Below, piece by piece: positions 2,831-49,100 of a stretch of DNA of 64,000 nt. The notes beneath the pieces are model-generated. The model was not told where the DNA came from and made no database searches. It was given only the letters and a program-made list of their open reading frames with translations. The stretch spans positions 336,355-400,354 of the forward strand of contig JAQTUX010000002.1 of assembly GCA_028707125.1 (NCBI GenBank), written 5' to 3'. The first letter of the stretch is position 1; each line of letters opens with the position of its first letter. This stretch comes from Candidatus Omnitrophota bacterium. Lineage in GTDB: Bacteria; Omnitrophota; Gorgyraeia; Gygaellales; JAQTUX01. Made by a program: the position numbers and the translations under genes.

Positions 2831-2834
2831 TGGG

Positions 2835-3713: not shown

Positions 3714-3714
3714 T

Positions 3715-5223: not shown

Positions 5224-5247
5224 TAACTGCTCCTTTCTTATTGGCGC

Positions 5248-6651: not shown

Positions 6652-7014
6652 TTAATTAATCCCCGCCCACCAGTTCCTGGCCAGCTCATCCCTGTGGTTT
6701 TCCCGCACATAGAGGAATATCTTCTCCCTGTCAAGGTCGCCTAACTTGGTAAACCTCAGGCCCCGCTGCTTGTTGAAGACCTCATCCCTGCCCCAGACGA
6801 CCTTTGCCTCGGCCACAATGGGTTCAAGATAAGGGAATGCAACGATCATTTCAACATCGCTGCCCACAGGCAGATCATCCCGGCAGGCGATACGGCAGCC
6901 GCCGAAACTCAAGTCCTCGAGGCGGCATTGCCTGCGCTCATCTGACCCGGGCAGGCAAAATTGCGCTTCCTTCGCCTCGAGCTCCCACCTCGCGCTCCTT
7001 CTTCTTTCCCGCAT
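6652..7014 (-). CDS. PilZ-domain protein (c-di-GMP receptor-like)
   Basis: 120-aa ORF. The N-terminal RRxxxR motif (MRERRRSARW) and the downstream DLSFGGC (D/NxSxxG) match the two c-di-GMP-binding motifs of PilZ domains at the expected spacing. Confidence 0.65.
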   Translation of the reverse strand: MRERRRSARWELEAKEAQFCLPGSDERRQCRLEDLSFGGCRIACRDDLPVGSDVEMIVAFPYLEPIVAEAKVVWGRDEVFNKQRGLRFTKLGDLDREKIFLYVRENHRDELARNWWAGIN

Positions 7015-25100: not shown

Positions 25101-28100
25101 TCCCCGGCTCAATATATCTTCGCGCAGCATTCGCGCTGATGACGCTTGAGGGGTGAACGCCGTAATGGACCATCGGCAATACGGGGATCTTCATCATAGA
25201 GGATACATCGGCATCGTCTATAAAGTAATGCAGGTTGTCCCCCGCTACAATACGGCTAAACTCGCCTTCTTTATTAAGAAACGCGTATGTATACCCGCAG
25301 CTTATATCAGACGCGATCTCCATGCCGGCAAGAAATAGCTCTTTCGCGTGGGCGCCTTTTATCATCCATCCATTACGGGCATAATAGCCCGCGATAGAGA
25401 TAACCGATGCCCTGTTATCATTTCTGAGGAAGCATAATAATATCGGTATATCCCCGTGATCGATCACCCTGATAAAATCACCCGGCCCTAATATTTCCGC
25501 ATCAGAAAGATTAAACGCTCCAAGCACGCAATGTTTATTTAATCTATCCAGAGGCACATCCGCAAACCTGAATTCATCATCACTATTTTGCCAAATTAAG
25601 CACTCATCCTGTATGCCCAGGGCGGCAAAGATATGCCTTGCGATATCCGCCTCTTGCTCGCTGACAGAGACAGCATCTTCGCTCATATTGTCCAGCAGGC
25701 CCGCGTTTATATGTTTCGATACCGCGCTGCTTGATGCCTGTGGCGGCAACAACCTGATTTTCCATTCATCGCCGCATGTTGAGAAGTTATCTCTGCCGAT
25801 TGTCTTGCGGAAAAACCTCTGGGCATCTAAACTCATGGAAGGCGTTGATATCCAATCGCCGATGGAGAAACCGTGGCTTTGGAAGAATTCAACCGCGCTA
25901 CCCCACAATGCCCTGCCTATACCGTTTAATCTCCTTTCTTTAAAACAGTAAATATACTGGAGTTTACCTTTGCCTCTCATTATTTCGATTTTGATATACC
26001 CCGTTGGCCTTACATCGTCTAAAGCAACCAGCAATTGCATTATTAATCCGGGAGAAAAACATATGCTTGCGGATATATCATTTCGCGCAGATTTTATGCT
26101 GCCGCAGTATCTTTCTCTGGCCAGAAGCTCAATAAATGCTTCGCGCTGCTGTGGGGTAAGCCGCAATAACGTTTCCACCTGTATTTTATCGCCTGCAGTG
26201 CAGGCGTCGCTCCCACTCCCCTCCTGCGGCGGGGCAGGCGCGCTGCTGGAGGCGCCATCGCCGTTCCTGTTTATCTCTGCTACACGCCGACGCATAGCGC
26301 TATACACTTCTTCATCAATCGTGGGCGCTTTTATTGTGGGTAACAGGTGCCTGTCCGCATCAAAGATTCTGTTGTAACGCTTATAAATGCTGGACAAACG
26401 CGCATGGATAAAAGCTATAAGAACAAATAACCCCCTGTCCACGGGGCGAAGGGCAAATGCCAGATATAAGTCAATAAGCGCGTCTTCATACATTAAGGCG
26501 TCACCGATGGACTGCTTTCTGAGGTCGCTGTCAAATGCCCTATTTTTCTTGTCCAGGCCGGACTTATAAAGCAATCGGTACATCTCGTCATGGCGGCTCA
26601 CGATCAACATCACAGGATATATTTCGTAAAATGAGGCATGCGTGTTAGAACGCGGGAAATCCCGCGGCACCCTTATGCGATGGACAGACATTAAATCCAG
26701 CCGGCCCGAACTTCTGAGGTAATCATTAACGGTCCTCTCTGCCGAATCAATATATCCCCATCCATAGGTTTCAATATCGGATGTAGCGAATGTAATGACC
26801 ATCAGGCCGTCTTCCCTCAAAATATCAAGGCCTATATTAATAAATGTAAAGCTGGCAGGGCAATTAATAGAGACCAGGTCTTTTGATGCTTCGATCAACC
26901 CGGCATTCGGCAAGCTTTCTTTATCGGCGAGATCGATATGCCGGACCCTGCCTGCGGCCAATGCCTGTCGGTCGCAATTCCTGTCAACGTTGACGCTGCC
27001 TTCGCCCGCCCGTATTCCAACCCGATTGAGCAATGCTGTCAGATTATCTCCAAACTCGCCTTTCGGGCCGGATGCGATGTCGGCAAAATCCACAATGCCG
27101 CGAGAGGCAAAATGCTCTCTTAACAGTTCCGCGAAGGAATCTGCCTGGCTGTCGTTCTGCCCCTCACCCGCGCTGCTGGAGGCGGCCTTGTCAGTTTTCC
27201 TCCTGCGCCCCTTACCGGCGATATCCATCTGCTTTCTTTTCTGGCGGTATATCTTTATCAATTTTATAATATCCGCGGCAACATTCTCTCCCTTTGCCAT
27301 CCTTACCGCCAGCCCCTCTAATATATCCTCCGTAGGCCTGGGTACCTTTGGCCCGCCATATTTCCTGTATAACTCCATGATCTTGGATTTAAACTCCGCC
27401 AAAGCATCTCCATCTATCCTCTTGAGAGCCACGCGTTTCCTCTCTATGGAAGCGATCAGGGCGGCGCGCGATTTGTCGCCGTTGCTTAAGGCATATTCCA
27501 TATCCTTATTGCTCTTGCGCTTCCTGGCTTCTTTGGTCCAGCAGGTCCTGATATCATACCCCATCAATATGTTAGGCAGGACATCCTCATATCTGACCTT
27601 AAGCTTCCTTGCCGTCTTGACCGCTTCCTGCTTTGACTCCTCGATCAAGCCCGCTGCCGAGTTAAAATCCATGCCTGACCTTATAAGCGCGACCATGGCA
27701 TCGCCCAAGGTCACCTTATTCCGGTGCGCGAACGCCTTCGCCCTGGCCTTGCTTTCAATAAGATCATCCAATACGCCGCTGCCATACTCGCCGATGATAA
27801 TCAGCAGCGCGACATTGAAAGGAACCCCTTTATGCCCTTTCTGGATCGCCTCTATCTCCGACTTAAGGGCCGGCGTAATTATCGGTTTGCATATGCCATA
27901 GCCGCTGTCTGAGGTCATCGCAACCAGCTCTCTCTGCAATAATCCGGAGCGCACACTGCCGCTCATATCGCGGAGCCTTCTGTTCTCACGCAATTTCATC
28001 AGATAGATCACGATGACCGCGGCGGAAAGCGATAAAATTATCTGTACTACCGGGCTGCTGGAGGTTTGCTGCTCATCCTGGGAGTTATACAGCCACCGGA

Positions 28101-31100
28101 CGGCCTCTACGCTGCCGTCCGGTCCGCACACAACCCTGTTCTTCCCCTGTTTTGAAACTACCTCAATGATAACAGCTCTATTTTCGCTGCCAAACATATT
28201 GAATCTCGTGACGTCAACATAATACACCGGGGGCCGGCGATCATCGTTACTGCTGATAAAAATACTGTGCCTGCCGCTGCCGGGGAAGATCTGCGCACAA
28301 AACTGCACCTTGGTTCCTCCAAGCAAACCCCACTCCCTGCAAACAACATGAGACCTGCTGGAAAAATAATCTATGTATATGTCATCTCGCGCGAGCCCCA
28401 TAAGGCCGGTTGCCGTACCCACTAAGTTATCTCCCGGGGCGTATACGCGCACACCTGTATTTATACCTTCATAGAATACCTCTTCGCGTATGCCTCTTTG
28501 AAATTCCATAAGGTAAGAGGCGCCGGCGCTTAAAGGCATGCCGCCAAGCATTTCTTCGGGAACAAGGACTATGCCTAAGCCGCCGCTGTCCTCCAAGAAG
28601 CAGTCCCTGTAACCCTGCTCAATGGTCAGGTCGATGAATACCCTCCTGCCGTTAAGTTCAGCATAATTATACGCATGGTTATAGGTATCGCCTTTGACCC
28701 CACCCGCGGTTAAGAACATTCCGCCGCTCAATCCGCGGCCGGCAAACCGGCCAAGGGCCATAAGCCCCGCCCTGAAGCAGTCGCCTGTGCGCGGCAGGGA
28801 AATCCCTTCTTTCCGCTTATACGCTTCAAAATCGCTCAATACCCCCGCAAAGCAGGCGATCTCTGCGGAATCAAGCCATCGCAATACTTCATCCAGCGGA
28901 TATCTTTCCAGGAACAGGTAGCTCATCAAAGGGACAAGATTATAGGCGTTAAACCGCACCATAAAACCCGCGTCACCGGAAAAACCCCTTAGAAGCCCGA
29001 CCGGCAGGACATTCCATTCTCCTCCCCGCGCTGCCTGGAAGAAACGATATAGCAGCGCCCCATTACGGTCATAAGCAAAGCTTTCACTGCGGCCGTCGGG
29101 ATAATTAAACCTGTCCGGCTTCCCGGAAATATTAAACAATGCGCGGCCGGCTTCTTCGCCGCGGCTGTCTCGCGCTGTGATGACCGCCAGCCGCCTGCCA
29201 TCTTCAGGGTTAAGCTTAAACTCATAAGTATATTCGCCAACGCTGATCGATCCTCCCGGGCTGCTGGAGGTGCCGCCCTGCGGCAACTGGACCATGAAAT
29301 CGATCTCTACCCCGTCGCCTTCTCCTGCCTGATGCTCATACCAGTATGTCGGCTTAGAATAATCATCGGCAGAGGCGTCCCAGACACGCTTCCTTCCTTT
29401 AAGCGTCCCCTCAGCCGGCGCAACCGAAGCCACGCTGAACTGCGCCATTAATCCTTCTTGCTTACATCGCTCAAGAATACCCGTTGCCAAAAGGCGGATG
29501 TTACGCAATGACGACGGTTCAACAGCCTTAGACACTTCAACAGGAGCACCCGTTATGGCAGCGGCAGGGAAAGACCCCCTCATAAAACGCAGTCCGAGTA
29601 TTGGGCGCGGCCCCAGATCCGGCCCTTGTACCTTAACGACCTCATCATGGCCGGATTGCCAATCTGCGTTAATACCTTCTACATCATTATCAAAATCGCG
29701 GCAGGCGATCTTCAGAAAACTGCCTTGGGGATAAGAATTCCGGATCACGGCAAAAACCATATATCTGCCTTTACGCTGGGGAACGCGGCAGAGCCGCTGC
29801 GCCAAAGCAGTAATGAGGCCTTTAAGTTCATTTAACTGCGCCCGCTCCACATTAATCATGCGGCTAACCTCATTCAACAAATTATTTACGGCAACACTCT
29901 TACCGCCAATCTTAAACCTTACCCCTGGCTTCGCGCCCACAACTACTTCTACCGGCACGCCGCCGGAGAACAATCTCCCAAACCGTTTGTTCAACATATT
30001 CAGTTCCGCTTCTTTACCTGCGGCCAGATAATAGAGAAGCTCGTTCCATATGTCGCTCATGCGGAACAGCGGCTGGATCCCGGTTTTCCCAACCGCCTCT
30101 CTGGCGCCTATGTTGACTCCTTCCTGAGCCCGCGCGCCAACAACAGACAGCTCATAAGAAATCCTCTCCCCTAAAACCTCCATGCTCAACAATGGTATCG
30201 CTTCAAGTTCTTCATCCACTACAACCGGAGGCACAACGCGTAAACCCAGCTTCCAGGCAAGCTCAACGGCGCAGCCTAAAATCCTCAGGAAATAATAGGT
30301 ATATTCTTTGGGATTGGTCACGGCAAAGGGGTTGCGCTGAAAATGCCAGGCGTAACAACTCACCTCCGCGTCAAAGACCAGCATCCATACCGCATCGGTG
30401 GCGCTGTTTGAGCCCGCAGCTCTGAAATACGGCAGGCCTGCCTTCTCAAGGGCGTTGATCACATGATCCAGGACGCTGTAAAGCACATACTGCTCGCAGT
30501 AGCCGCCTATCCAGGCCGAGGCATCGGCGTTGTCGTGCCAGGTGCCGAAAGGAATATGGCTTAGCCGCGGCAGGCATCCCACCCCGCCTGCCTCCATCCG
30601 GCTTATGAAATCGATCATATCTCCCGCGGTCATAAAGCTGGCTGCCGCGCTTCTGCTGACCGCGGCCAGCTTTTCGCTCCAGATCATCGCCCCTTCCAGA
30701 TAATTGGGCACCAGATTTTCTGAATCGGTAAATTCCGAAGTAAATACGAAGACCCTGTCGGGGGACGCGGCCCTGGCCCAGCCGGCGACATGGGCTGCCA
30801 TCTTAGAGGCCTCTTTGCTGTCGCTTGGCTGCCGAGGTAAATCCCTGTAATCAGTCCAATCATTTACTCGGCGTAAGGCCCCGCCTTCAAAATCCACGAA
30901 CCTGTCAAAAGAGTATGGACAAAGGATGAGGCCGCCATGGGCGGTTTCATAAACAAGGGGCGTTGCCCGGTCAGCACACATGCCGTTGGCGGCTATTATC
31001 TTATAGAAATGGTCCTTGCCCACATAAACCAGACGTATACCCTGCTCAACAAGGAGCTCGGCTGATCGCGTATCCATATTGCCTTCGGCGTTCCATATCC

Positions 31101-34100
31101 ATATCATCTCCTGGCCGTAGACCTGCCGGCAATGCTCGCGGGCGAGAATGATCTGGCTGCGCACGTCCTGCGGCCGCTTTAAATCATAGGTATAAAAAGG
31201 ATTCAGCCCTGCCTCCCTTGATGCCCTGGCCTGGTCGGCAATGGCAGCGAATATGATGTGCGGGGTTACGCTGAAATCGATCTGGCCTCTTTCACAAAGC
31301 AGCGCCACCGTATTAGGAAAGATGCTCATCGCCTTTGTCATTTCATATACCATCCGGCATAAGGCCATATCGTCTGAGGCGAGCGCTATCAGGTCGGTTG
31401 TATCCAGGAACTCGCGGAAATCAACCCTGCGTTCAAAATATCCGGCCCGCGAGAACAAGGATCTCTTATCTCCGGAGAAATATGCCTGCTTTCTGCCCTT
31501 TACCGGAATACCTGCCAGGACCGTGGGCCCCGCTCCTGCAAATGTCGGGCGGTTGAAATGCGCCAGGTTCTGCCCCAAAAGCAATGCCTTCGCTATCTGC
31601 GCCCATATAAGGATATTTCTTTTTGCGGCTTTAGAGAGATCCTGCCTGAAAAATCCGCCTTCCTGCCACTGTTCTTTCCACAGCTCAGCGAATACTGCCC
31701 AGGTCTTCTGATATTGCGCCGGCAGCTCTCTCGCCCTGGCCTGGGCGTATTTGATGTCTTCGCTGTCCCAAAGCGTATATGGCTTGAGAAACAGTCCTAT
31801 GTCTCTGTCTAAAGCGTCTTCCTTAACCAGGGCAGCGACCTTATCCTTGATCATGAAATAGAAGAACCTCCAGACCAGCCGCGAAAGCCCCAGCCATCCT
31901 GCCAACACGTAGAGCAGATAGAGCCACCTGAACCATCTTCTGCCCATAACGCCGCTAAGCGACTGCGCGTATTTAACCAGCTCTTTTGAAAGCGTGTAAG
32001 AAATGCTGTAGTTATAGCGCGTCCCTGCCATTTCCGGAGAAAGCATCATGAGCAATATGGCCAGGTAGGTGGCAAAATAATGCAGGCGCGACCAACGCAT
32101 ACCCGGCTGATGGCTGTTCAGGGTGAGCTGGTAGAACGAAAGCAGCGCGCGGGAAAAGTCATCCTGGAAGCCGAGGCCGAGGCGGCGGCAGGATTGGACG
32201 TAGACGAACAGCTCCTCCGTGTGCGCGGCAAAATAGGCATGGCTGTCGCTGCGCGCCTTGGCGCAGGCAGCGTCATGATCTAATGTATTGAGGTATTTTA
32301 GCTGAGTGGTGAGGCGACGGTTGAAGTCGGCAAGATAGGCGGTATCCGATGTATCAGAAAGGCGCTCGATCAGCAGTTGATGAATACTGATAAGCAATGT
32401 GTCTCCGTCTTCATTCACATTTAACGTAAATGCCTCCTGCCCTGCCTCGGGCACAAGATAAGCATTTACATATTTGTATCGGGGCGGGGCGTGCATAAGT
32501 ATGCCGTCCAGAAGCGCGTGCAAACGCTGCGCCATTGCCGTCTGTTCTTCCCCGGAAAACGATGCCGCATCAGCCGCGCAAGGGGCGAACTTCCCCGGGG
32601 ACAACTCCCTCTCAAACATAACACGCTTGCCTGTACTTGCGCGCGCTACCGTGCCGCAGCAGGACACCGAGCTGCTGGAGGCGCCCATGCCCCAGCCCTT
32701 ATCGCTCCTGGTGTCGGCAGGGATGGTTTCCGGTACCCTTGCTTCCATATCTACTATGAAGGAGCCGTTAAAACATTCAGCCGCGTATTGCAGGGCCTTA
32801 ATCCTGTCTTCGGGGCTCTTGCTGTTGTAACCCGGCACCACGGCAGCGCCATACGCGAAAAGCGTGTCCAGAAGCCATAACCCGGCATCCATACCCGCTT
32901 CATTTGCCAGCTGCCTTACGCGCCTTTCACATCCCACTGAATCATATATATGTTCGTCCAGCAGCCCAAGCTTATTAAGGGTGGCCGGCGCGCCCTTGCG
33001 CGCTATTACCCGCCTGGTACGCGGCCACGCGTAATACATCAACTCATAACGTAAAGCGGTAAAATCCACCACGGCCGCGCCGGTCTGCCAGCCGCGCATG
33101 CCTATCTCTATCCAAAACCGGATTTCACGCTCTATCAGCCCCTTGCCGTAACCCTTATCCCTTAATTCGCTCCCGAGCGAGCGGGCATTCCGGTAAACCC
33201 TGCCGCCATTGTTAATGAATCCTCGTTTCACGCAGAATCTACAGTCAATTTCCAATACCTCGCTATCCAGATAAAGCGCCTTTTCAATGCGCTCGCGCTG
33301 CTGGATAATGTTAGTAAGCATATCCGCGACAATAAGGACGTCTGTTTCTTCATGGAGAACATGCACGACCTTCAGAAAAACAATATCAAACAGGCCGGCC
33401 TTCCTCGCCTTAAGCAAATCTTCGGAAAGCGAGATTATAAGGCGTTTGACGTCGTCAAATCTTCTGCGGGCGATCATAACTTCCTGTATCTGACGGCCTC
33501 CGTTATAAGTATTTCTCAAATATGCATATAATTCCGGCGGCAGCCACTCTCCAGTGCCCCGCTCGATCACTTTCAATACGGCAGGGTGCAGGCCATCCAT
33601 AGCGCGCCCCCCCTGTTCCGCGCCAAGCGGCGAAGAAGATGATACAATGCCCATCATCTTTAATGCGCCAATAAACAACCGGTATTCGGTATCAGTCAAA
33701 TCGTTAAACGGATATCTGCGTGACAATACTAATTCCGGAAAATCAGCCTCCGATTTCAGGCCTCCTACATCACTAAGATAGAGCGCGCTGACAATCTTCT
33801 CAATACCTATCAATTCATATTGGTTTTCGGTAATAATGATTATATTCTTTACTGCGGCAAGCACGCCTGTCCTGCGGTTATCTATAAAATCTTGCGCCGT
33901 GGCAATAAGGTCGTGGGCATAAGGAATTATATATCCTTTCTCTCTTAAATTGGCGCAGACGCTATCAATAACCGCGTCCATTTGTCTGCAGGCCAGCAAA
34001 CTGCCGTTCTCGTATAAAATGGCTATATCAAGATCGTCTTTTACTTTTTGGCGCCCTTCCGCGAAGCTTCCGTAGAGAATAATTGAAATTCCGCGATCTA

Positions 34101-37100
34101 AGCCCAAACTGTCCCTTACCCGCCTCTGCGCTTCCTGAATGTCACCTATTACCTTATCAGTTGATAGCGGCAGGCCGCTCCTGTGCGACGAACTGCTGGA
34201 TGATCGCGGATGATCCATTTTGTCCGGCCTGCCGGCCCTGCCATAAAATATCTCCCGTAAATAACTCCGGATCTTTTCCCTGGCTATATCGCAAACAATA
34301 TGGTCGATTTCGTGCCTTCGTTCTTTATGCCTGCCGAAATTTCTGCCGAATTCCTCCGCCGTAAACCGCTCAAAATAATTAGTGAGGTACGGTTCGATCA
34401 GCCCTAAATCCCGTATAACCCTTCTGTTATAATTACCGGCGATCCACTGATAATCATGCTCTGGAGTGATCGCCCCTTCATCAAAGATCTGGTCAACATC
34501 AAACCCCTTTACCCTCCTCAGGGGGTCAATGCCCTCCGCGCCTCCCGTCACCGGCACGCCGTAATTCATGATCATAACCCGCTCATCGCCGTCCCAGACC
34601 CCCAGTTCCCACATATTTATCTGAAGCCCTCTAAAATCGCGTATCGCTTCATATGCCCTCTGATACGACGGAAGGCTGTCCCGTTCTTCATTTGATAATT
34701 TATCCGCGCGCCTGCCGTATATCTGAATGGCCTCCGCCGCCCCTTCCGCCATAAGGATCGTAAGATAAGGCCCCAGATAAAGTATTTTTTCCTGAAGTAT
34801 TATTTTGGGCAATACCATGATTTCCCCGTCAGGCAGCGTGAATTTGAAATCTTCTACGGTCAGGGTTGAAGCGAAGAGGCTGTCCAGGCTGCTTTCCTCT
34901 ATCCTTAATCCGGGCTCGACCAGCCCGTTAAAATTATTCTCGTAATCCCGCAGGTATGCCTCTTTGTCAAATTGAGGATCATCAAACGGCACGACGGGTA
35001 GGAGCATCTTTATTACGAAATACAGCCCTTTGTCGGAATAGGCGATCATCAATCTTCCGGTATCACCCCATTGCTGCAATCTTACATTTTTGATCCGCTC
35101 GTATACCGCCTCCACGATCTCCTTTTTAAATCTCCAGCTTAACTGATCAGGGTCCAGCCCATACCCGGCAACATGCCTTCTGAATACACCGGATTCATGC
35201 CTGGTCTCATATAGCCGTATTACACCCTCAATGATATCTTCAATAACGGCCTCTTTATCTCTCTTTATATATTTCTTTATAAGGCGATTTATGCGATAAA
35301 CGCCTTCTAAGAAAACAAAGAATATATTCTTCGCTAAGAAATACGCGGTGTAGGGCGCCATATAGAGGTACGACGGCAGCTCATTAAACAGGCGCGATGC
35401 CCCCTGCATCCGGCTTATGTGTATCGCTTCCGCGGCCAGGATGATCGGCAGCGCTAACCTCTGTATCCAGGATATGAGGAAATTGGACTCAACCACCAGG
35501 CGCTTATTAAGGAACAGGACTCTCCTGTCAGGGTCAACCCTGGCAATCCTAAACCTGCCCCTCCCAAATGAATCCTCATATACTATGTATCTGAATCTTC
35601 TTCCCGCATTAATACTGTGTATTATTGTCAACAAGTCGGAATCCTTTGCCATGCCGATCTCCTGTTCAATAAATGAGCATAGCTTGTAATCTCTCCTGTT
35701 TTTTACGTCTGTGAAGAAAAGTATGATAAATGACCCTGCTGCCAACGCAAAATAAACAACCGCTCCAAAGGATCCCGCCAACGAAACAAACACGCCTATC
35801 GGTTCAAATACCGCCGGAAGGCCTGTAATGATAAATATCCCTGAAAATGACAGCCCTATGGATATGATTCCCCAGAAAATCAATCCAGGAAAAGATGTAT
35901 TCTGGGCCGCGCTATATAAGGGCATGGGTGCTTCCTGCGCCGGGCCAGAGGCGCTGCCGGCGGAACTGCCCTTACTTCCTGTATCATCAGCCCTCGTAAT
36001 ACAGATGCCATCCTTTGACACTACAATTCGTATCGCCTTATCATGTTTGACTATCTCTAATTTGCCAAGCAGGACAGAGCGCACTGTCTTTGTTGCCTTC
36101 CCGTCAATTATCACAGGTATTAAGTTCTGATTTTGAAACAATCTGCCTCTATTAACGCGCTCCAGGAATTCCGTTATGGTTAAACTCTCTCCGCCCTTGC
36201 CGCTGCCGGCCGGCCCTTGCTTGGCAGCAGATAAAGCAGACAACTGATCCTGCACCGCAGAAATGACCTTGGCTAATCGCCTAACCAGGTCCTGCCTGTT
36301 GTCATCCCAGTGCTTAAGATTCCTGGCTACGGAGGTATAGCTTGAATCTTCGGGGTGCGTGCCTGTATGGGTGAAAAACGCCATCCCGTCTAACTTCTCC
36401 GGATTAGACAAGGTATCCAAAATTATCCAAAGCAACGCCCTGTCCTTCTCATTCTTAAGCCTGCATAAAGAGCATATCTCCTCAAAACTAAAACGCGTCC
36501 TGCCTCCTTCGATCTTATTGCATATCAACGTCAATATCGCCGCCGCCATAAACTCCTGGTCTGACGGCTCGCCGCCCGGCGGCTGGTTGAGCGGGCTGCT
36601 GCTTTCAGAGGCGCCCTTTCGCCTCTTAATGGTTACCTGCCTGCCTATCACCTGCCTGCCTTGCAAGGTCTGGCGCGCGATAACTTTAGAGGAATACCTC
36701 CATAATGTCCCGATTTTTTCTCTATCTATCGCGGAGATCTCGATTTCCGGCTCCACTTTAAGGTCATATTTGGTAATACTATCAACTATCTTTTCGTAAA
36801 GCAGGTCAAATACGCGGATTTCCGCTATCTTACCATCGCTGCCGCGCCTGATATATAAATATACCGGCGCTCCGGACTCTAATTTATTCCCATAAATAAA
36901 TGCCCTCCTGAGAAGCGTCTTGAGCTCAAAAAATACATCCTGCCCAATGTCGCCTTCTAACCTGGCGGAAAGCTCTCTTGCAAGACGCAGGATAAATTCA
37001 AAGCTGCCCGAAGGATTTCGCCGCCCGAGTAAGATCTTAATCGCGCTGCCGTCAATAATGCCCTGATACAGAATAGATGGATTATCTCCCGTCTTTATTA

Positions 37101-40100
37101 AGTCATCCCCTGATACCTTCTTGACTGCCGCCTCTAATAACTTGACTCGCTGAGTAATATCGGTCAAGGCGGGCGCCTTTCTCCTGAAAACCAGTATGAT
37201 CCCGCCTGCCAGGATAAGCACCGATACGACGTAACGCGCATATCTGTTCCAATCAATCTCTTCTGCCACGGGAGCAATGCTCTTAATAAATCTGTTCTTT
37301 ACCTCAATATTTTCCGCCGCGGACGGAAGGGCTTTTCTGATCTCCTCTCTCAGTCCTTCAATTACCCGGCCCTCGTCCTGGCCGTGCCGCGCCTTTAGCC
37401 CTGCGATCATGCCCCTGATATCCAACTCCCTGAAGGCCAGCCCTGCCTCGGCTATGACAGCGGGATCCTGATAGTCGCCTAACCAGACCAACAGACCGAT
37501 ATCCCAGTGTGGACTACGTTTGTCTATGTCCGCGATCATAAGCCCTGCGCCCCGAGATAAGGGGTAGCCCCCAATACCCAAAGCATCTTCCTTTTCCCAG
37601 TCAATTTTATCTCCGTATTGAATAAGGGTGTATTTACCTGCTTCTTCATTAAGCGGTTTGGCGGCGCATACCAGGACCAGCGGATTCGAAGGCGCCCCCC
37701 TGTCAATCACCCTGCGGTAGCGGGCTCCGCCGCCGACTTTAGGAGATGTCTCCATATACTCCTCTCCCCTGTGTTCACGGGGATTCGCATCCACAAGCTC
37801 AAACTTGTAATAGTCGTAATCTGTCCGGGCATCTTTGAAAGCGGCGACTGTCTGCGCCCAATTGATATGCCCCTGATAAGACCTCATGGCAAAGGTCGCC
37901 ACGACAAGGATTATCGCGACGGCCACCAGTAGTTCGATCAAACTAAAGCCGGCATCCTTACTGCTGTATGATGGAAATTTGGCTTTGAAATGCTGACTGA
38001 TCAAATAAAAGAACAGGCCTGCTGCGGCTAAAACATATGGTTCCCCACCAGCCACGGAGAGGTAAACCAGTGCCGCAGCAAGCCCTGTAATTATAAATCC
38101 TGTAAGTGCTTTCGTTTTTACCGCAAATAAAAACCCTGCGGAGCGGGATGCCTTTTTGCCGGCAGCGCCTGAGGAAGCTGCGCCGTAGCCGCGTCCATCT
38201 GTTTGACCACCGGCGGCCCTGAGACGCGTGAAAATACGGCTCAGAATATCCGCCTGCTTTGCCTCATGAAGCTCGAAGAAATAAGGATGGAGATAGACGA
38301 AGCACAGGCCGGTCTCATCAATGGTGAATGCGGCAACCGGGTTGTCGCCATCCGCAACAGCTGTCGCGGGAAAGCTCGCCGTTACTACAAAAAACAGCGA
38401 GTCCATGAGGTCGGTTACAAGGCTTATCTTATTGATCTCGTAAACCCGCGACTGCAGGGTATCATATCTGCCTTTATCAAAGCCGTCCGGGATGCTGTCC
38501 GGAGTCAGAATGCATCCTCCCGGCATTATCTCCGACCATTCAGGCCCATAGTCACACTTTGCCCGCGCCGCCGCCTCCTCGGGTACACGGGAAACAACGC
38601 CGTTTCCGATCCCGAACAACCCGGCTGACCCGGACAAGATGCCGTTGATACTATGCTCATCTATACATTTGCCCCGCTCCCTGAGTTGATCGGCAATCTG
38701 CCTGATCGTGATTCTGTCGTTAAGGCGCTTAATCGCCCAGGCCAATTCCCAGTCAATATCCGGTTTAACCCTATTCCAGAAATCCCGCCCATGTACAGCG
38801 CTGATCCTCTGCTCGTAAAACCAGTTCATGGCGTTGCCCGCCGCCAATACCGGGAACCTGTCTGCGGATATGCGCATATTTCCGTATTGGTGTGAATAGA
38901 ATCCCCTCTGACGGCTGCCCGATGCCTGCCAGGAATCGCATGGCGTAAGGCCAATACTGCCGAATAATTCCCTGAACTGCCTGTCGATCTCCTTTTCTTT
39001 CTCAACCGGCATATATTCCTGTTCCTCGCTACTCAACGTATAGTACGCGCGCAATTCCCTTATCGGAGGTAATCCGGCCAACGCGGCGATCTGCATAGCC
39101 CTGAGATATATCCTGACCGCCAGCTCCTTTCCGATCCTCATCCCCTTGGCATGGACACGGAAGAAACAGCCGTGTATGTGAACCGCGCCTCCTGCAATAT
39201 CGATAGTTCCGGCATGGCCCAAATACACCCCGTTCCAGAACAACTCCACAAAAACCGATATCCTATCCACCTCGTAACTCTTTATCTTCCAGAGTTCAAC
39301 TATGTTATGGCTGTAAGGAGCCGTTATTGCCGGGAAATCCTCACTATTCCTGCAACGAAATCCCTGGGTCTCCAAAACGGTTGTATATTGGTCAAACCGC
39401 TCTTTCCGCCAGGCAGGGTGTGTTGGTTTAGCGCCATTGCCGTTACCTGCGGGAGAACTGGCCGAATCCAAAGAGGCCTCCTCCTCTGCCGCCTTCGCCC
39501 TCCTGAAGCCGAGGAAAAGGGCGGGGGCATAGATGGCAAAACCCAGCCATGTCGCCGCTGCGGTGGGATACCAGGGAAGATAGAGTATGTTATGGGCGAA
39601 GGCGGCAATAAAACACGGCCCGGCCCAGGGGCGCATCCTGGACACCCCGGGGCAATGCCTGTTTTTTTCCATGACGAAGAACATCAGTATGGAGAACGGC
39701 GGCTGGGTAAGGCCTACCAGGATAATACGCAGGGATTCAAATTCTGGCCCGGGGAAATACCAGAACAACCATCCCAGGAAAGGCGCGAATATCAGGAAAG
39801 AGATGATAGCTACGGCGCGCATAGTGGCAAGGTCGTCGCGGCGTAGAAGCCGCCTTTCCATAGAGGCATAGTAGAAGAACGTGATAAACAAAGAGATCGC
39901 GGCCGTTGACATCTGGTCGGCAATGCCGCGGATCTTTTCATCAAGAGGGCTCCATAGTGTATAGCTCCACGGCCAAAGCCAGCTGAAAACACAGGCGGCC
40001 AGGGCAAGCATCGCCAGGATCTTGCGGAGGTTATACGGCTCTGATAAATCCCCTGCCCTCCTGCGCTCAAGATACTGCCCCAGGAAGGCCCCAACAGGTA

Positions 40101-43100
40101 TGAACATGCTCAAGCTCAGGAAGCCGCGCAATGTGGTGCTGCTGGGTATCGCGGTTATAAACCACAGGTTCAGGCAGGGATTGGGCAGGCATTGAATAAC
40201 GGAGAACGTGAGAACGATAAAGGCGGAAACTACTGCTATGAAACTATATGTCAGGACTGGCCGCGGCTGGCGAAGGAATCTCTCTCCTGCAATAACTAGG
40301 GCAGCTCCTGCAGTAAACCAAGGTATGGAAAGTAATACGGCATGGAAGACGAATGTCCCGCAAAGGAGCGAAACCGCCGTTTTTACGATCAGGTAGAAAC
40401 CGATAATAATAGGTAAAGAGGCGATGAGCAATATTGTTTTGGCAGGGCCGGACGAAGAATGGATACTAACAGACGAAGATGCGGCTGGCGGCCCGGTCGC
40501 GGGAAAGGAAGCAAAATAACCCCCCATAAGCGGTAATGCCGAATGCCTGGAACCAGTCAAGCCCATAAATAAAGGGCCTGCTGCGGCTAAAACATATGGT
40601 TCCCCACCAGCCACGGAGAGGTAAACCAGCGCCGCAGCAAGCCCTGTAATTATAAATCCTGTAAGCGCTTTCGTTTTTACCGCAAATAAAAACCCTGCGG
40701 AGGAAGATGCGCCTTTACCGGCCGGCGCAATTTGTGTGAACACATGGCGCAGTGCCCCTATCTGTTTCTCCGCGGGAAGTTCAAAGAAAGAAGGGTTCAG
40801 ATAGATAAAAGATGCCTCACCGGCTGGATCAATGGTATAGGCGACCTCGGGGCTACCCGCCTGTTTAATGGCTATTTCCGGAAACTCTGCCGCAACTACA
40901 AAAAATACCGATTCCAGAACCGCCCTTAACTTCCTGCCTTCCTCTCTGTTGATATTGTTAATGGCTAAAACCAACTCCTGTAAAGTATCGTAATGCCTTG
41001 GATTGAAGCCGTCAGGGACAATAGCTGTCAATAGTGCGCCTCCAGGCAGGGCCGGACTGGAGGAGAACCCTTCCATATTTATCTTTCTTGCCACGATAAG
41101 GTACGGCCGGCTCCCCTCATGCGCCTCATACCGCCTCCTCCATTCTGTAGCAGGATAATCCAGAGGGAACGCATCCTTCCAATATATCCTGTAAGGATAC
41201 CCTTTATACTCAAGCCAGTCCGTGAAGAACTGCGCGGGAATGCCTCCAGGGAACGACCAGGAGTCGTTATGAGAAAAGAGAAAGTACCCACCCGGCTTAA
41301 CCAGTTCGTCATAATCATTGAGGTGTTTTCTCCTGTCATTGAACAGCTCTCCCCCTTCACCTGCCGCAATATCGCAGAATGACTCGCTTAATATATCTAC
41401 GGTTCCGCTCTTGGGGTATGTTTCGTCATCACGCCGGGTTATTACTTCTAATCCGGCCCAGGAAACGGGGTTGGTGCCCCAAGTAGGACTAGGCAATTCA
41501 AAACCGAGGCGGCGCGCCGCGGGAAATGTGTTTTTGAGCCCGCGTAATAAATCTCCGTTGCCTGTGCCTACGTCAAATATAAGCCCGCCAAAAACAGCAT
41601 CGCCCATTGTCTGCTGAAGCGTGATCTTGAACATGGCGGAATGATCATCAAGTTCGTATCTGCCCTTCGGCATAATATACCAGTTGACCGCCAGGTGAGG
41701 CAGGAATGCCGCCAACGAGAACAATACCACGAACAACATCCCGGAAGGGTTAAAGTAATTTAAGGCGGCCAATAATATCGCGCTGGATATACTGATCGCT
41801 ATCTTGTCATCCGTAAATGCCTTGTTCCAATTGCCTTGCATAAGATCAATACGGCTCAAATGATTGAGATGCCACATCGGCAGGACAAACAGCAGCAGCC
41901 AACCCCACACCATAGGGCCGAAACACAAAGAACAACCCATCCAATGGTATATAGGATAACTCACCCCCAAAGTGCAACCCGCGACCCAGCCGACTGATTC
42001 TACAAACGCGGGGGCAAAGACAAACCCCCAGAAGCGGCCGAAATAGCGCTTTGCCCAGTAGTAAACCGGCAGCATCACCGGCCACATGCCGCCCTTCAAC
42101 CTAAAGCTGGCCTTCTTTTGCTCCGGAGAGGAACTTTTGGCGGATGAAATATTTCTCTCTTCTTTAGAAATAATATAAGCTTTGGAAGAATGTTCTTTCC
42201 CAAAGAAATCTACAGAACTGACATCGCAACCGGTTTTTGTCCTGAATAACATTTCAATCTCTTCCGAGCCTGCCGCTATATTAATAATTACGGCTTTCCC
42301 GCCCGGGGCAATATGAGGCGCTATTTCATCCGCGACCCTATTTAATAATCTGCCGCCATAATCAAACACGCTCCTCTCTGAATGAGCCACCGCCTCTGGC
42401 TCGGTTTCATGTGACAACTGCGGCGCATTAAAGATAATCAGACCATACTCACCTAAGCCGTTAAATAAGTCATTGACAAAAGCCTCAACCTGAAGGCCAT
42501 TACCCCTCAAGGAACAGGTCAGTAACGTATTTTGTACCGCCATTTCTAATAAATCTACAGCCGTAACCAGAGCGCCTTTAGTGGCGGCTATAAGCGCCTC
42601 TAAACCTTTCCCTGTCCCGACAATTAAAACTCTCATTCCCGGCTTTGCGTATTTATCAGCGGCTTTTGCGCTCATAACACTTGAGCAATGCATACCATGA
42701 AAAACTCCGGGCAATATTGGAATGGCGGATAATTCTGTTATTCTGATTTCTCTAAAATCGGAAAAATAACCCACAACGTCTGTGCTATGCGCTAAAATAT
42801 CTGCAAATTCTCCGTTGCTAAAAAGAGCGTAGACATGGCGGGTATTATTCAGAAAATAAAACTCTTCTTCCGGGGCCAAAAGAAATCCTATCGCTTCTCT
42901 TAAAGCTTCAGCCATAGCCATATCCAGCGAACTGCAATATGCCAAGAAATGAATGGTTGCTATGTCTTTATTACCCCGATGTAAACATAGCAATATGGGC
43001 ATATTTTTATAGCGTATCACCCTCATTGTGCCTGTAAGCGCGGTCTTCTCCGTAAGTTCAAAGGCAGTCAATATTGCGTGTTGATCTAATCCGGACAGGG

Positions 43101-46100
43101 GCAGATCCGCGGACTCAAATATTCCGCCACGCGCTGGCTGCCACTCTAATTCTTCCTCACGAATACCCAGCGTCACAAAAACGCTCCTGGCAATCGCCAT
43201 CTCCTCTTCGCTTACAGGAAAACCCGCGTCCAATAAAGCTTTTGATTCAGGCGTCAATAGTGCCGAAGAAAAAGCCGCCGCCGGACTTGAGCCATTTTCC
43301 CTGTGTATCGCCTTTGTTTTAACCAGGATGTCAAAAATCTTCTGCCCTAGTTTTTCGGGAAACTCCCCTTTTGTCTTATAGGGCTGATTATTTCTTATCG
43401 CCGCGTCGCGCCATACACTATAAATCTCGCTGAGCGGTTTGCTTTCACCTCTAAACCTTACCGTGCGGCAAGACCTTATCAGGAAACCATCAAGGTCTCT
43501 CCGGAATTCCTCTTCGGTTTCAGCCAGCTGCCCTATGCCTTTATCTTTAAGCATCTTATAAACCGCGGAATAAACCATGCCGTCCATATCGGCTCTTTCC
43601 GCGTCAAATACCATGGTTGAGATGCCCGCCTGGATCTTAACCGCACAGGCGGGGACTGCTTTAGCAAGGTATTTTACCTCATCCTCTCCTATGGCATAAC
43701 GCCCCTGTCTTTTCCTGAAAGCTGCCTTGACGATTTTCGTGCGGCTGATCCCATGCTGGATATTCTTTAAGGTCACGGGAAACTTACCGCATATAAGCTG
43801 GGCTATCGACTTGAGCGCCTCATTTCTGTCCGTATATACGAAGGCATGGCCTTTATAATAATCTTCTACTATCTGCCGGACAACCTGCGGGGCTATTTCG
43901 CCGGCAAAACTGCGCAGCTCTTTCAAGTACTGCGCGTAACAGTGGGCGATTATTAAAAGTATGGAACCACCTATGACAATAAATATTAATAGGCCGGTTA
44001 ATATAAGCACCACCCTGGTTACGGGATCATCCATCCCTGCGGCCCTCGCGTACCCGCCCGATACTCTGTCCGCTGCCATGACAAGGCCCGCGGGAAGCCG
44101 CGACAATAACTCATCAACCGGGCTGGAGCTTCCCGTTCTCTCTCTTGCGTCAGACATGATGTCTTTAATGACGGCATAAAGGTTATCGGGCCTGAAAGGC
44201 GCCTCTACCAGATCATCTATATCATATTCGCATACCTCATCCGGCAGCGTTGGGCCGTCTGCGCTTCGCTTCCTGTTAAGGAACAGCCTGATCGCATCAG
44301 CCCCATCCAGTGAAACGCTGGTAGTTTTCTCTTCGCCGTTGTCTATAATAGACATATTGACAACATATTGGATCCCGGGCCTATGCGACTTGGCCAGCCT
44401 TGCAATAATGATCTCATAAAGCCTGTTGGGGGTTTGGAATGTTCCAAGCGCCTGCCTCTTTAACCCTCTCTCAGCGCCATCATCAATAAGCAGCTCCGCT
44501 CTTATCATCGGCGGAGCATCCTGTTGAGCGGCTTGCGCATGCCGGCTGGAGATAAAATACATCCTCTTTCTCATTCTGGCGGACTCTATCCTTGAGGATA
44601 ACGCCCTCACGATATAACTCAGCGCGAAAGACCCTATTGCCAAACCTCCGATCACGATCAGCCCCTCCGCCAGGAAGTCCCCGGGCATACCGGACAAGAC
44701 GATATCTACCGCGTCCCCTGCCGCGCTGCTTGAGGAGGCGCCGGCCTGACGCGCCAGCCGCTCTGCCTCGATGCGCTCGATCTGGCTTCCCATGATCCGT
44801 ATGAGCCCCTTTGCCTGCTCTTCAATATTGCCCTGGGTCATGCCCATGCGGGTCGGGGCGCCGTTCTGCTGAGAATTGGTTATGCTCGTCGGGCCGGCCT
44901 CCTTGCCTTTCTTGGACAGGCCGCTTGAGGAAGAACCCTTAGGATACGGCTGTTTGTCAACAAGGTTAATGTACCCGGCGTTGTCCAACAATGGAAATAT
45001 ATTTTCTTTAAGGATCTTAGCGGCCAAGGCGCTGCTAAAACTATAATCTTCCAAAGAGGCGCCGCTGTTCTGATTAACCCAAAAACAGAAGGAGCCTACG
45101 GCCTTATCTCCGAGGTAGAACGTAAAAGACGCCGTCCTGTCTTTTTCATTATCGCCGGTCCCGGTCTTGCCGCCCACAATCTGTATGTTATCCCGGATAA
45201 ACTGCGCGTTTCTGCCCGTGCCTCTGTCAACCGCCGAACGCAGGCAGTTTTCCAGCAAGAGGCATATTTCTTCATTCAACACCCTGCGCTTTGTGCCCCT
45301 TCCGTCCTTCTGGAGCGCAACTTCAAAAGGCGTGCCTTCCGCAAATCTCAGGCCATCTATCCTTATTGTATCGCATAGCCATCCCTTACTTTTAATCACC
45401 GACATCAGCTTGGCTAACGAGGCGTTGTTATCTCCGGATGTCCCCAGCGTAGTACTTAAATGGGGGTTTAATTCAAAACTTCCGGCGTAACCTAATTCGC
45501 GCCACCGGCGGTTAATGACCTCAAATGCCGCCTTCTCTAATCCGTAGAACTTCCTTGCTTCATTTTCGCCGATTATCCTGGCTATCTCAACGTCACGGAT
45601 ATCTTCTAGTACGCGCACAAAAACAAGATTTATAGACTGGACAAACGCCTCTTCAATGCTCATCTGTGCAGGTAAGCCGGGGTGATTATTCTTAGGGGCG
45701 TATTCGCTTCTGCCGGTATAGAATGAAGTTTCTATTGTAGGGTATTCTCTCCTTAAAGACTCTCTTAAGACTTCAGCCAGAGAAGCCGTTGGGTTTTCTT
45801 CCATAAAGGCGCCAATCCAGTTTAAGAGAGACGTTCCGGTGTCCCTCTGGTTTTTGTTGCCGTAGATATTATTTGCGGCATATAATCCTTCCAGGTTACC
45901 TATGTATTCTTTAATTTTAGCGTCATCGCTTTGCCATAAATTATACAGCCCCTCCACCAGCCTCAAGTAATCCGTAATCACCCGTAGCTTGGAAGTAGAG
46001 CCCATAATCATTCTTCCCATATAATTATCCCGCAGGCTGCTTGTATTAACATCAACTATAACCTGGTCAAAATTATCCTCCCTCTCAAGAATAAATAGGC

Positions 46101-49100
46101 CGCATTCCACATTAGAGGCATGGGCAGTGGTGGAAAAATAATTCCCATAATTATTCTGCTGTATACCTCTGAACAACGCCCTTATTTTGGCCTCCAAGGC
46201 TACATCATAAGTTACCTGCACAGAAACATTCATAGAATTTATCTCTTCAGGCGTTGCGCTAAGGCCTGCCCATGATGCCAAGGCATCCCGCGTTTCAATC
46301 TCTCTCTGCGTCAAGTGGTAAAAATAGCTGTTGTCGCCATTGAAACTGATTAAGCCCGACAGGCCTATCCTTGAAGCGGCATCCGCCAGCTCCCCGCTAA
46401 TCAGTCCGTCTTCTTCCATACGCATAATAACGCTGTTGGCTTTATTATTCAGCGGTTCTTCAAATATTGATGCCTTCCCCGCTGCTTTTGCCCGGGCTAA
46501 ACTCCTTAGCTTGGACGGGTTGTTTATTGAAGCGCTTATAATCGCGGCTGCCTTCAGCGCCCTTGCTTTCATGGTTAGATCCTGATGTTTACCCTCCGGA
46601 AGTGTTAAATCGCGCTTCAAGGCAACCTTGTTCATGGCACAATATGTATAGAGCGCGTTTATCAGACCCCTGTTTCTTTCATCGCCAAAATATAGCGAAT
46701 TGGCGTAATGCAGGAATAAATCGCGGCGTGCGTCAATGGTATCCAGGCCGTTTTTATAAATAAACAGCCATGACCCCGCGTATTGCCTTAATTTATCAAA
46801 GGGGCCAAATGTCTTTTCTCCGCTTGAAAACTGAATTTTGTAATACTGCACCGGAATGGTGCTTGCCCCGAAACTCCCCTGCCCGGAAAGATACCAGATA
46901 GCCGCCTTAACAATACGCGGGTCTATTACTCCTGAATAATATGCGGTCTCCTGAAGCCAATACCTGTGATTTTCGGCATAGCTTACCGTATCCACAAGAA
47001 GCGGCGGTATCTCGTCAAAGGAGTTATAAATCAGATAGTCCGGCTGTAGGACTTTTCTGTTGCTCTCCCTGCCGGTCCGCTCATAAATGGTCAAGCCGCG
47101 CATAGAGAATTCCCCCTCTACAATGTATGCGCTATTTTTCCGGGGCATATCTATCTTGCGGTCAAAGGGAGGCGTTATCCCGCACTCAATAAGCGCCCTT
47201 GTAAGGGCGCCTTGATTAACCTGCTGCGATATCTTAAAATCATCGGCTTCCAGAGCTCGCATAAATATCGGTATATAGGGATAGCCCCTCTTTTTTAACT
47301 GCGATGAGCCTTCCGAGGCATCGGTCATGGTCTTGTAGAGAGCGGTCCGTCCATCCTTTAGCTCCCAGTTAATATGCCTGTTAGCCGTGCCGAAAATAAA
47401 TGCCTGAACAGGGCTATAGTAAAACTCCGAAGCGGACAGGCCTGTGAATAGAATTAAAATTATGCCTGACCGACGCAGTAAATACCAGCCGGGAAATGAA
47501 ACGGGTTTACCGGAATACCTAAGTATGAAGTAATAAAGCAGGGCCAGGCAGGCATTAACGACCAATATGCATAAAACGGTACTCGCGGAGACCGCGGTTA
47601 TCATAATAGCGATATCTTTATAACTAAGGTACGCTATATTGTCCTTCAAAAGTAGATACAAACCGTAGAATACAAATAAACTCGCTGCCGTTTCCAAAAT
47701 CAAGACGAATTTACTTCTCTTGGCTATCGTGGGGACGGTTTTTCTATCCGGGCTGCGCGCCAGCAATTCCTTCCATTTGGCAAAATCCTCTTCTGCGGCC
47801 TTGGGGTCTCCTGCTAATTCGTGGATCTTCCCGAGGTTCAGATAAACATCAGGGTCATCTGGGGCAAGCTTTGCTATGGCCTGGTTATAGGCGTTAATCG
47901 CCTCCTGGAATTCTTCCATATAGTAATAGGCATTACCCAGGGATTTATACACCGAGGCGAAAGGAGCATTCAGTGAGATTGCCTTCAGGTAATGCTCTAC
48001 TGCTTTTTGATATTCTCCCGAGCCAAAATATATTAAACCGGCATTATTGTGGTAATCGGGGTTATCCGGCAGTATATTTAATGCCTTTTCAATATCCTCT
48101 GCGGCTTTCCTGAAATTGCCTAATAGGCTGTAAATATAGGCCCTGTTGTTATAGGCGTCAGCATAATCGGGATTGGCCTTTATTGCCATAGCATAGTATC
48201 TTTTTGCCTTGCGGTACCTCCCCTTCTCCAGGCAGGTATCGGCATATTCTTTATATTGCTCCTGTAATTCGCTGTCGGCTGTAAAATGCCATTTCCACCA
48301 GTATGAGACCATTTTTTTCAAAGCGAAAAACAAAGCTGAGAATTTAGTCGCCGCGAAATGATAAATACCAATAAGGATATGCCCTGTAATTAGCGCTGCT
48401 GCCTGTAGGAGGCCGGGAAGGGAAGATATAAACGCCCCACCCTTTGCGACTCTGTCTTTTGTTCGTTTGAACCATTTGTAACCAGACCTTAGAAGTTTTA
48501 TCAGGTAAGGTAATACCATTAATGCTGCTATTATGCCTATTGCATAGTGTAGGGGCTTTGATGTAGTGATGAAGGTGTAGGTACTCCTGAAGAAGCTGTC
48601 TGCGCCCTCTTTTAACCTGTCCACCTTTTCCTGGATGATCTCTGCCAAGGGCACAGGGGTCTGCGTAGCAGTGGGGGCAGTGGTAGGCGTCAGGGTCGGG
48701 GTGGCTGTAGGTTCGGGGGTTGAGGTAGGCTTAGGGGTATTAGTTGCCGTTGGCTCTGGGGTGTAGGTTGAAGTAGATGTTGGCTTTGGTGTAGATGTGG
48801 CGGTCGACTGTGGAGTTGTAGTCGGCTCTGGAGTTGAAGTATCAGAGGGTTGGAGGGTAGATGTTGATGTTGGCTTTAGCGTAGAGGTAGGCACTGCTGT
48901 AGGAGTATGCGTTGCCTGTGGTGTAGACGTTGATGTAGGATGCGATGTAGGCGTATGAGTTGGGGTCGCGGCAGGAGTAACAGTGGTAACTTCTCTATTT
49001 CTAATCTTACCTAAGGCATATGCTGCTGCATTGCGGACATCCCAGTCTCCATCTTTTAATGCCTCTATGAGGACAGGGATAGCAGAAGGGTCGCCGATGT

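Follow-up and report, generated by a model that had tools for sequence, protein, structure and literature searches.

A giant open reading frame (ORF) of a Candidatus Omnitrophota bacterium carries a prepilin-type class III signal deep in its interior, and we lean toward the view that the signal belongs to a pilin-like gene captured in frame, whose class III helix would now serve as a signal-anchor exposing a periplasmic loop of ~213 amino acids (aa). The DNA analyzed here, called the window below, is a stretch of 64,000 nucleotides (nt) from contig JAQTUX010000002.1 of assembly GCA_028707125.1 (positions 336,355 to 400,354 of the forward strand). On its minus strand a frame runs without a stop codon from window position 63987 down to 7117, i.e. 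18,956 aa under translation table 11 (56.9 kb). The frame is still open at base 64000, so 18,956 aa is a minimum length; the protein is probably longer, with its true start perhaps beyond base 64000. The signal and the parts of the protein around it are listed here in the order of translation, with a slash marking the predicted scissile bond.

7117..63987, minus strand: giant ORF, at least 18,956 aa, with ~28 hydrophobic segments resembling transmembrane (TM) helices and with scattered domains
38110..38535, minus strand: second copy of a duplicated module, aa 8485-8626, adjoining the hydrophobic hairpin
37993..38109, minus strand: hairpin of two hydrophobic helices, ALTGFIITGLAAALVYLSVA-GGEP-YVLAAAGLFFYLISQ, aa 8627-8665, behind a basic stretch of charge +5
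37948..37992, minus strand: basic loop HFKAKFPSYSSKDAG resembling a leader, aa 8666-8680; it includes 3 Lys and 1 Asp, and Gly(-1) is its last residue
37888..37962, minus strand: class III signal or N-terminal methylation motif SKDAG/FSLIELLVAVAIILVVATFA, aa 8676-8700
37885..37947, minus strand: alpha1-N hydrophobic helix, aa 8681-8701, with pilin-like alpha1 going on to ~aa 8720
37243..37884, minus strand: orphan 'head' region, aa 8702-8915, 213-214 aa, one Cys, predicted to be periplasmic
37186..37242, minus strand: return TM helix YARYVVSVLILAGGIILVF, aa 8916-8934, followed by RRK... (+5)

A prepilin-type signal inside a giant protein

An earlier reading of this DNA, made from the sequence only, had reported an almost complete match to the class III consensus, and the Pfam check bears this out. 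The N_methyl family (PF07963) matches aa 8676-8700 with 28.9 bits, where the curated cut-off is 21.2 (E 7.4e-07), and the match persists at 26.3 bits in a scan of a 5,000-aa chunk. NCBIfam TIGR02532, whose cut-off is 16.3, reaches 27.5 bits, and the lower-scoring NCBIfam matches are almost all pilins or pseudopilins (PpdD, GspI, ComGE, GspJ, GspH). The core KDAG/FSLIELLVAVAIILVVATFA covers aa 8677-8700 (window 37888-37959, minus strand), and the local translation on that strand reads ...YLSVAGGEPYVLAAAGLFFYLISQHFKAKFPSYSSKDAG/FSLIELLVAVAIILVVATFAMRSYQGHINWAQTVAAFKDAR... The residues named in the earlier reading can be read directly from it: Gly(-1) is residue 8680 (codon 37948-37950), Phe(+1) is residue 8681 (37945-37947) and Glu(+5) is residue 8685 (37933-37935), within about 20 hydrophobic residues. 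The scissile bond is predicted to lie between G8680 and F8681. What had been called a Ser-rich linker is just PSYSSKDAG, with 3 Ser in 9 residues, and forms part of the 15-residue basic loop.

In class III signal peptides (SPIII), a hydrophilic leader with Gly or Ala as its last residue precedes a stretch of 20-25 residues that are for the most part hydrophobic, position 5 often being a Glu (PMC10191384); the internal motif has G(-1), F1, E5 and 20 hydrophobic residues. Based on composition, we expect ~3e-5 such motifs by chance in the giant protein, the pattern being G-F-[ST]-L-[ILV]-E plus at least 15 hydrophobic residues out of 16. A G-F-[ST]-L-[ILV]-E-type pattern occurs only once in all six frames of the window, and a relaxed scan of the giant ORF found no second full motif. 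By the curated family thresholds the motif is confirmed as a genuine prepilin-type signal and not a chance match.

The likeness to pilins is real and extends beyond the motif through alpha1 to about residue 40. All the sequence matches in PDB are type IV pilins (geopilin, PilA, PAK pilin and PilE), aligned over alpha1 and reaching residue ~40-42 of the mature sequence at most. Our phmmer search with aa 8676-8915 against 1.84 billion representative proteins gave three matches with E <= 1e-3, which cover query residues 2-49 only; the best of them are pilin N-termini that also have S-Y-x-G at positions 23-26 (best: ...P/R-S-Y-x-G... behind the hydrophobic stretch). Y24 is present in alpha1 (37876-37878), while G14 and P22 of the classical type IVa pilins are absent. 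Judging from these alignments, the alpha1 helix is pilin-like by descent, Tyr24 included.

The head behind this helix is an orphan. No relative of it was found in word-indexed searches with aa 8661-8915 and aa 8300-9300, the exhaustive phmmer search of the 1.84e9 representatives gave no homolog of it beyond the alpha1-only matches, and a scan of Joint Genome Institute (JGI) metagenomes revealed no relative of the head or of the module. A single-sequence AlphaFold2 model, with a mean predicted local distance difference test score (pLDDT) of 44, has a 39-residue helix, then five strands at pLDDT 20-40 and then further helices; Foldseek with this low-confidence model (pLDDT 44) found no match in PDB with E <= 0.001. 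The head is followed by the TM-like helix aa 8916-8934, RRK and ~10,000 residues with further hydrophobic segments.

The deep internal position had also been claimed before, and it holds: Gly(-1) is at least at residue 8,680 of the protein, and the frame stays free of stops over the 8,679 codons preceding the motif and the 10,276 codons that follow it.

A probable membrane anchor or a possible processing site

From these data we infer an origin by fusion, a membrane topology and an anchor function. The origin is most likely the in-frame fusion of a small gene with a class III signal, of the kind reported beside giant genes, and the captured unit would comprise the basic loop that resembles a short leader, the residues Gly(-1), Phe(+1) and Glu(+5), and the ~40-residue alpha1 helix. 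For the topology we used hydropathy and charge counts only. The module upstream would be cytoplasmic, the two-helix hairpin would dip into the membrane and come back, and the pilin-type helix would then cross the membrane N-in/C-out, leaving the orphan region aa 8702-8915 in the periplasm. The helix aa 8916-8934 would return the chain to the cytoplasm, and the giant protein would be mostly cytoplasmic but membrane-threaded. Such an insertion is known for SPIII helices, which the signal recognition particle and Sec insert N-in with the leader in the cytoplasm (PMC10191384). Ahead of the first TM helix the charge is +5, in the loop leading to Gly(-1) it is +3/-1, and behind the return TM helix it is +5; by the positive-inside rule these flanking charges would place the G/F bond on the side of the membrane that faces the cytoplasm, the side on which prepilin peptidases cleave (PMC10191384). 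None of the residues of known importance for recognition is missing, and processing would hence be possible, though the anchor reading does not require it. The sequence-only reading had taken the motif as support for a polyprotein and had offered a domesticated membrane anchor as the alternative; in our view the data agree with the anchor no less well than with the polyprotein.

Several observations weigh against the anchor. The module is represented by one instance and has no homolog that could reveal a conservation of G(-1), F1 and E5, and none of seven related giant-ORF stretches (L001-L007) has a class III motif. The charge is equal on both sides of alpha1-N (+3/-1 each), and the published TM predictions for giant proteins are inconsistent. 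A plain anchor needs no Gly(-1), Phe(+1) or buried Glu(+5), and their retention hints at a pilin-specific role or a recent fusion.

Cleavage is the strongest rival, and we regard it as possible but doubtful. The prepilin peptidase of a neighbouring system resembling a type II secretion system (T2SS) or type IV pilus (T4P) would cut between G8680 and F8681, methylate the Phe and split the giant protein in two; the cut would give a pilin-like N-terminus that docks the C-terminal product, or a trimmed fragment of it, on a pseudopilus or an assembly platform. The signal scores like that of a working pilin, with G(-1), F1 and E5 all in place, and in the predicted orientation the bond lies on the cytoplasmic side. 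In an ordinary TM helix E5 is an expensive residue to keep; its known role is in filament docking, and the peptidases process prepilins without other proteins (PMC10191384). Post-translational cleavage of giant proteins has been proposed in the literature, and upstream of Omnitrophota giant genes T2SS-like loci with small genes for class III signals have been reported (West-Roberts et al. 2023, bioRxiv 10.1101/2023.11.21.568195).

However, no A24 prepilin peptidase, T2SS or T4P gene was found in the 64-kb window, the region upstream of the giant ORF being outside it. The 'leader' of such a substrate would be 8,680 residues long, with a TM hairpin just 15 residues from the bond, and we know of no substrate with so long a leader. 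With a TM helix and ~10,000 residues behind the head, extraction into a filament would need further cuts, and there are no homologs to show selection on the site. In addition, the two papers on giant proteins, i.e. the 2023 study and a 2026 preprint (bioRxiv 10.64898/2026.06.07.730766), do not mention a prepilin, a pseudopilin or an N-methylation motif inside a giant protein, and the text of their supplements has no N_methyl or prepilin entries. The multi-TM region aa 7850-8170 was considered as a place for a hidden peptidase and rejected, with no family match at E <= 1 and no GxGD motif. We think it rather unlikely that the full scheme holds, in which the peptidase of a T2SS-like system cuts the giant protein at the internal site and the N-methyl-Phe end couples the downstream product to the pseudopilus machinery.

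Stem-loop, duplicated module and the remaining alternatives

The hydrophobic hairpin in front of the basic loop holds the LSVAGGEPYVLAAAG element (aa 8643-8657), which the sequence-only reading had described as conserved. The element does exist and occurs three times in the ORF, conserved at both the nucleotide and the protein level. As DNA, the 'LSVAGGEP[YF]' element has copies at 38005-38098, 40564-40657 (93% nt identity) and 54310-54403 (83%), and all three share the 23-nt core CTCTCCGTGGCTGGTGGGGAACC without a difference. On the coding strand every copy folds as a stem-loop.

38013..38088, minus strand: stem-loop of ~75 nt, coding strand, with an outer stem of 13-15 bp and an inner stem
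about 40572-40647 and about 54318-54393, minus strand: further in-frame copies of the stem-loop

The folding energies are -40 to -45.5 kcal/mol (z -4.1 to -5.8), and none of 200 shuffled sequences folds as well. The third copy keeps the outer stem through one compensatory change from C-G to U-A and one from U.G to C-G, despite different amino acids. Runs of Ala codons are self-complementary by nature. Rfam gave nothing meaningful on the window or on the hairpin region, and the core is absent from the fetched loci of the relatives and from viral contigs. For a stem-loop that is found three times within one gene, the possible explanations are a tract of gene conversion, a palindrome inserted in frame, or an mRNA structure that has a function. 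We speculate that the conserved mRNA hairpin, lying 55 nt upstream, might pace translation or mark a boundary. A PEP-CTERM-like or other sorting signal was considered for 'GGEP + hydrophobic + KAK' and rejected: no NCBIfam model matches at E <= 1, and in the third copy acidic residues follow.

The stem-loop also bears on the idea that a separate small prepilin is translated from the in-frame TTG at aa 8662 (38002-38004), perhaps on a transcript processed at the hairpin. This TTG lies 12 nt past the very stable and conserved stem-loop, and the product would carry a 19-residue leader, MISQHFKAKFPSYSSKDAG, whose length and charge are ordinary for a prepilin. Yet no Shine-Dalgarno sequence precedes this TTG or the GTG at aa 8645, the sole in-frame starts near the motif, while each of the five ordinary genes in the window has an AGGAG-like ribosome-binding site. 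Furthermore, no stop follows the head, so that the product would still be longer than 10,000 aa, and the hairpin is also found at two sites with no pilin motif behind it. We therefore consider an internal start very unlikely.

It is even less probable that a generic TM helix resembles a class III signal by chance. There are plenty of candidates for such a coincidence among the ~28 hydrophobic segments, and only the helix, not the head, matches anything. Against this stand the Pfam E-value, reached above the curated cut-off, the small number of motifs expected from composition, the lack of another full-pattern segment in the relaxed scan, and the fact that the match includes signature residues that are not hydrophobic, namely G(-1), E5 and Y24/Q25.

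The module adjoining the hairpin is the second copy of a duplication: aa 8485-8660, which cover this copy and part of the hairpin, are 52% identical to aa 7644-7807 in the first. The two copies share ~128 nt at their 3' ends with two mismatches only (38008-38163 vs 40567-40722), and the rest is much less conserved, with 78% mean column identity over the whole alignment. Such near-identity suggests gene conversion or selection at the nucleotide level. Relatives of the module, distant ones, are found only in giant ORFs of metagenome-assembled genomes (MAGs) of Omnitrophota and 'Planctomycetales', with the conserved signature VYLHPYFFEL...KQLEILYHELISH; the matches are on five Omnitrophota and two 'Planctomycetales' MAG contigs (the seven stretches mentioned above), with 27-79% identity over short stretches. 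The conserved module of these relatives, VYLHPYFFELxxxKQLEILYHELISHxxKG, has an HExxxH-like signature (e.g. L004:3627-3743) and belongs to no Pfam family. Its His and Glu are lost in both window copies (38110-38535 and 40567-41058), and a peptidase-like role of the module is a guess. A search with the relatives' conserved module returned only four short fragments, without Pfam data.

The near-identical 128-nt repeat just upstream of the motif might raise the suspicion of an artefact, i.e. two or more genes merged by assembly, by a sequencing error or by read-through gene calling, and known proteins with 'internal' class III motifs give a warning here. Three library proteins were examined as precedents and none stood. 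P0001, a 404-aa 'double pilin' (L008:1628-2842, Logan contig SRR22022392_106229), has a second GFSLIEL motif in mid-protein as in our case, but it consists of two tandem pilin genes joined over a stop codon by the gene caller, with a stop and a Met start between them, neither of which is found in the window; P0002 and P0003 look frame-shifted. Internal N_methyl matches in protein databases need a check at the DNA level. For the giant ORF an artefact is extremely improbable: the frame is stop-free throughout its 56.9 kb, a single indel cannot yield 26 kb of open frame upstream and 31 kb downstream in the same register, a misassembly across the repeat is implausible because two direct copies on a linear path permit only one order, and the composition is uniform, with the GC content of the module typical of the giant ORF also at third codon positions (GC3 0.583 vs 0.552 +/- 0.072).

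The giant ORF and its relation to known systems

The giant ORF encodes at least 15 distinct Pfam families. They include PFK, PPDK_N, guanylate kinase, phosphorylase, HEAT, TPR and a GT51 transglycosylase, as well as the N_methyl match, GNAT, nucleotidyltransferase, URO-D and DprA/SLOG. No SecA_DEAD, C39 or S8 domain is among the Pfam matches with E <= 0.01 over aa 1-18,956, the part of the ORF inside the window. Before the first ATG the window offers 13 nt (63987-64000), and no ribosome-binding site is visible in them. The genes downstream are the following.

6652..7014, minus strand: PilZ-domain gene (PF07238, 50.8 bits), directly downstream of the giant ORF
1982..6570, minus strand: solute-binding protein, MFS_2 sugar transporter and two ATP-binding cassette permeases (BPD_transp_1)

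The GT51 peptidoglycan transglycosylase domain (window 46480-47028, aa 5654-5836) is bracketed by hydrophobic helices. Such a domain must work outside the cytoplasm, and its position beside cytoplasmic-type enzymes (PFK, guanylate kinase, PPDK_N, URO-D and DprA) implies that the chain crosses the membrane repeatedly. Since the GT51 domain is flanked by hydrophobic helices like the pilin-type module, our data suggest a general pattern in which proteins of exported type are spliced into the giant ORF with their own signal-anchors.

The HEAT/TPR region has tandem units of 93 nt (31 aa) at 48961-49734 and several longer direct repeats with 81-98% identity; the GC skew is +0.13 over window 48000-52000, which covers the HEAT/TPR repeats, versus about -0.15 elsewhere. 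Two more short direct repeats of 65-66 nt with 88-97% identity are found within the giant ORF at 44786-44916 and 52031-52395, ~7.3-7.5 kb apart, and correspond to a repeat at the protein level (aa 3870-3997 vs 6363-6412).

We compared the pilin-type module with known systems. Like the type IV pilins and T2SS pseudopilins (PF07963, TIGR02532, IPR012902), it has a basic stretch leading to Gly, then Phe1, Glu5 and 20 hydrophobic residues, and its alpha1 is similar to those of PilA, PilE and geopilin to about residue 40. It differs from them in that their motif is N-terminal, whereas here at least 8,680 residues come before it with no stop or ribosome-binding site in between; in that they have a free C-terminus, whereas here a TM helix and ~10,000 residues follow the head; and in that G14 and P22 are missing and the head has no homolog. 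As a motif it is a member of PF07963 and TIGR02532, but it has neither the N-terminal position nor a releasable subunit, and hence it is a pilin-derived module and not a pilin.

The modular pilins, e.g. PilB and PilC of Streptococcus sanguinis, are similar in having a pilin module fused to unrelated functional modules, and over 1,200 such proteins in 264 architectures have been described (Raynaud et al. 2021, PMC8179133). In all of them the pilin module is N-terminal with the extra modules grafted C-terminally, and the largest one cited has 860 aa (PMC8179133). The protein studied here is more than 20 times longer and extends far to either side of its pilin module; as the pilin-type motif is internal, the term 'modular pilin' does not apply to it.

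The closest likeness is to the giant proteins of Omnitrophota, which share the very long ORF, the many TM segments and the mixture of unrelated enzyme families with HEAT/TPR scaffolding. The published synteny, with pilZ and genes for solute binding and carbohydrate import downstream, is seen here too, and there are sequence relatives in Omnitrophota MAGs, although the pilin-type module itself has none there. In its mixture of domains the protein agrees with the class called 'multi-enzyme metabolic cluster' in the 2026 preprint (bioRxiv 10.64898/2026.06.07.730766). In contrast to most but not all of these giants, which have a divergent SecA_DEAD domain and a C39 or S8 peptidase near the N-terminus, the part in the window has none of these, and with its 18,956 aa or more the protein is below the 30,000-aa set of the 2023 study (West-Roberts et al.).

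What is unusual is the placement of a well-known signal, and this rests on a single sequence. Whether bacterial giant proteins work as one chain or as cut pieces is open, and no cleavage points are known (West-Roberts et al. 2023). The site reported here is a candidate cut defined by sequence, for which the enzyme class and the scissile bond are known and N-methyl-Phe would be the diagnostic product, and is therefore testable: one would look for N-methyl-FSLIELLVAVAIILVVATFAM(R) if the protein is cut and for the junction-spanning peptide ...FPSYSSKDAGFSLIELL... if it is not. If cleavage holds true, a prepilin peptidase would for the first time be seen to process a polyprotein, and there would be a concrete way in which a section of a giant protein is passed on to an apparatus for secretion or display. 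In the 2026 study, signal-peptide calls in the interior of proteins were dropped as chunking artefacts (bioRxiv 10.64898/2026.06.07.730766); discarding such calls in giant proteins can hide real features. The captured module would give a physical link between the giant genes and the T2SS-like loci flanking them, and it speaks for the view that giant ORFs expand by taking in entire neighbour genes along with their targeting signals.

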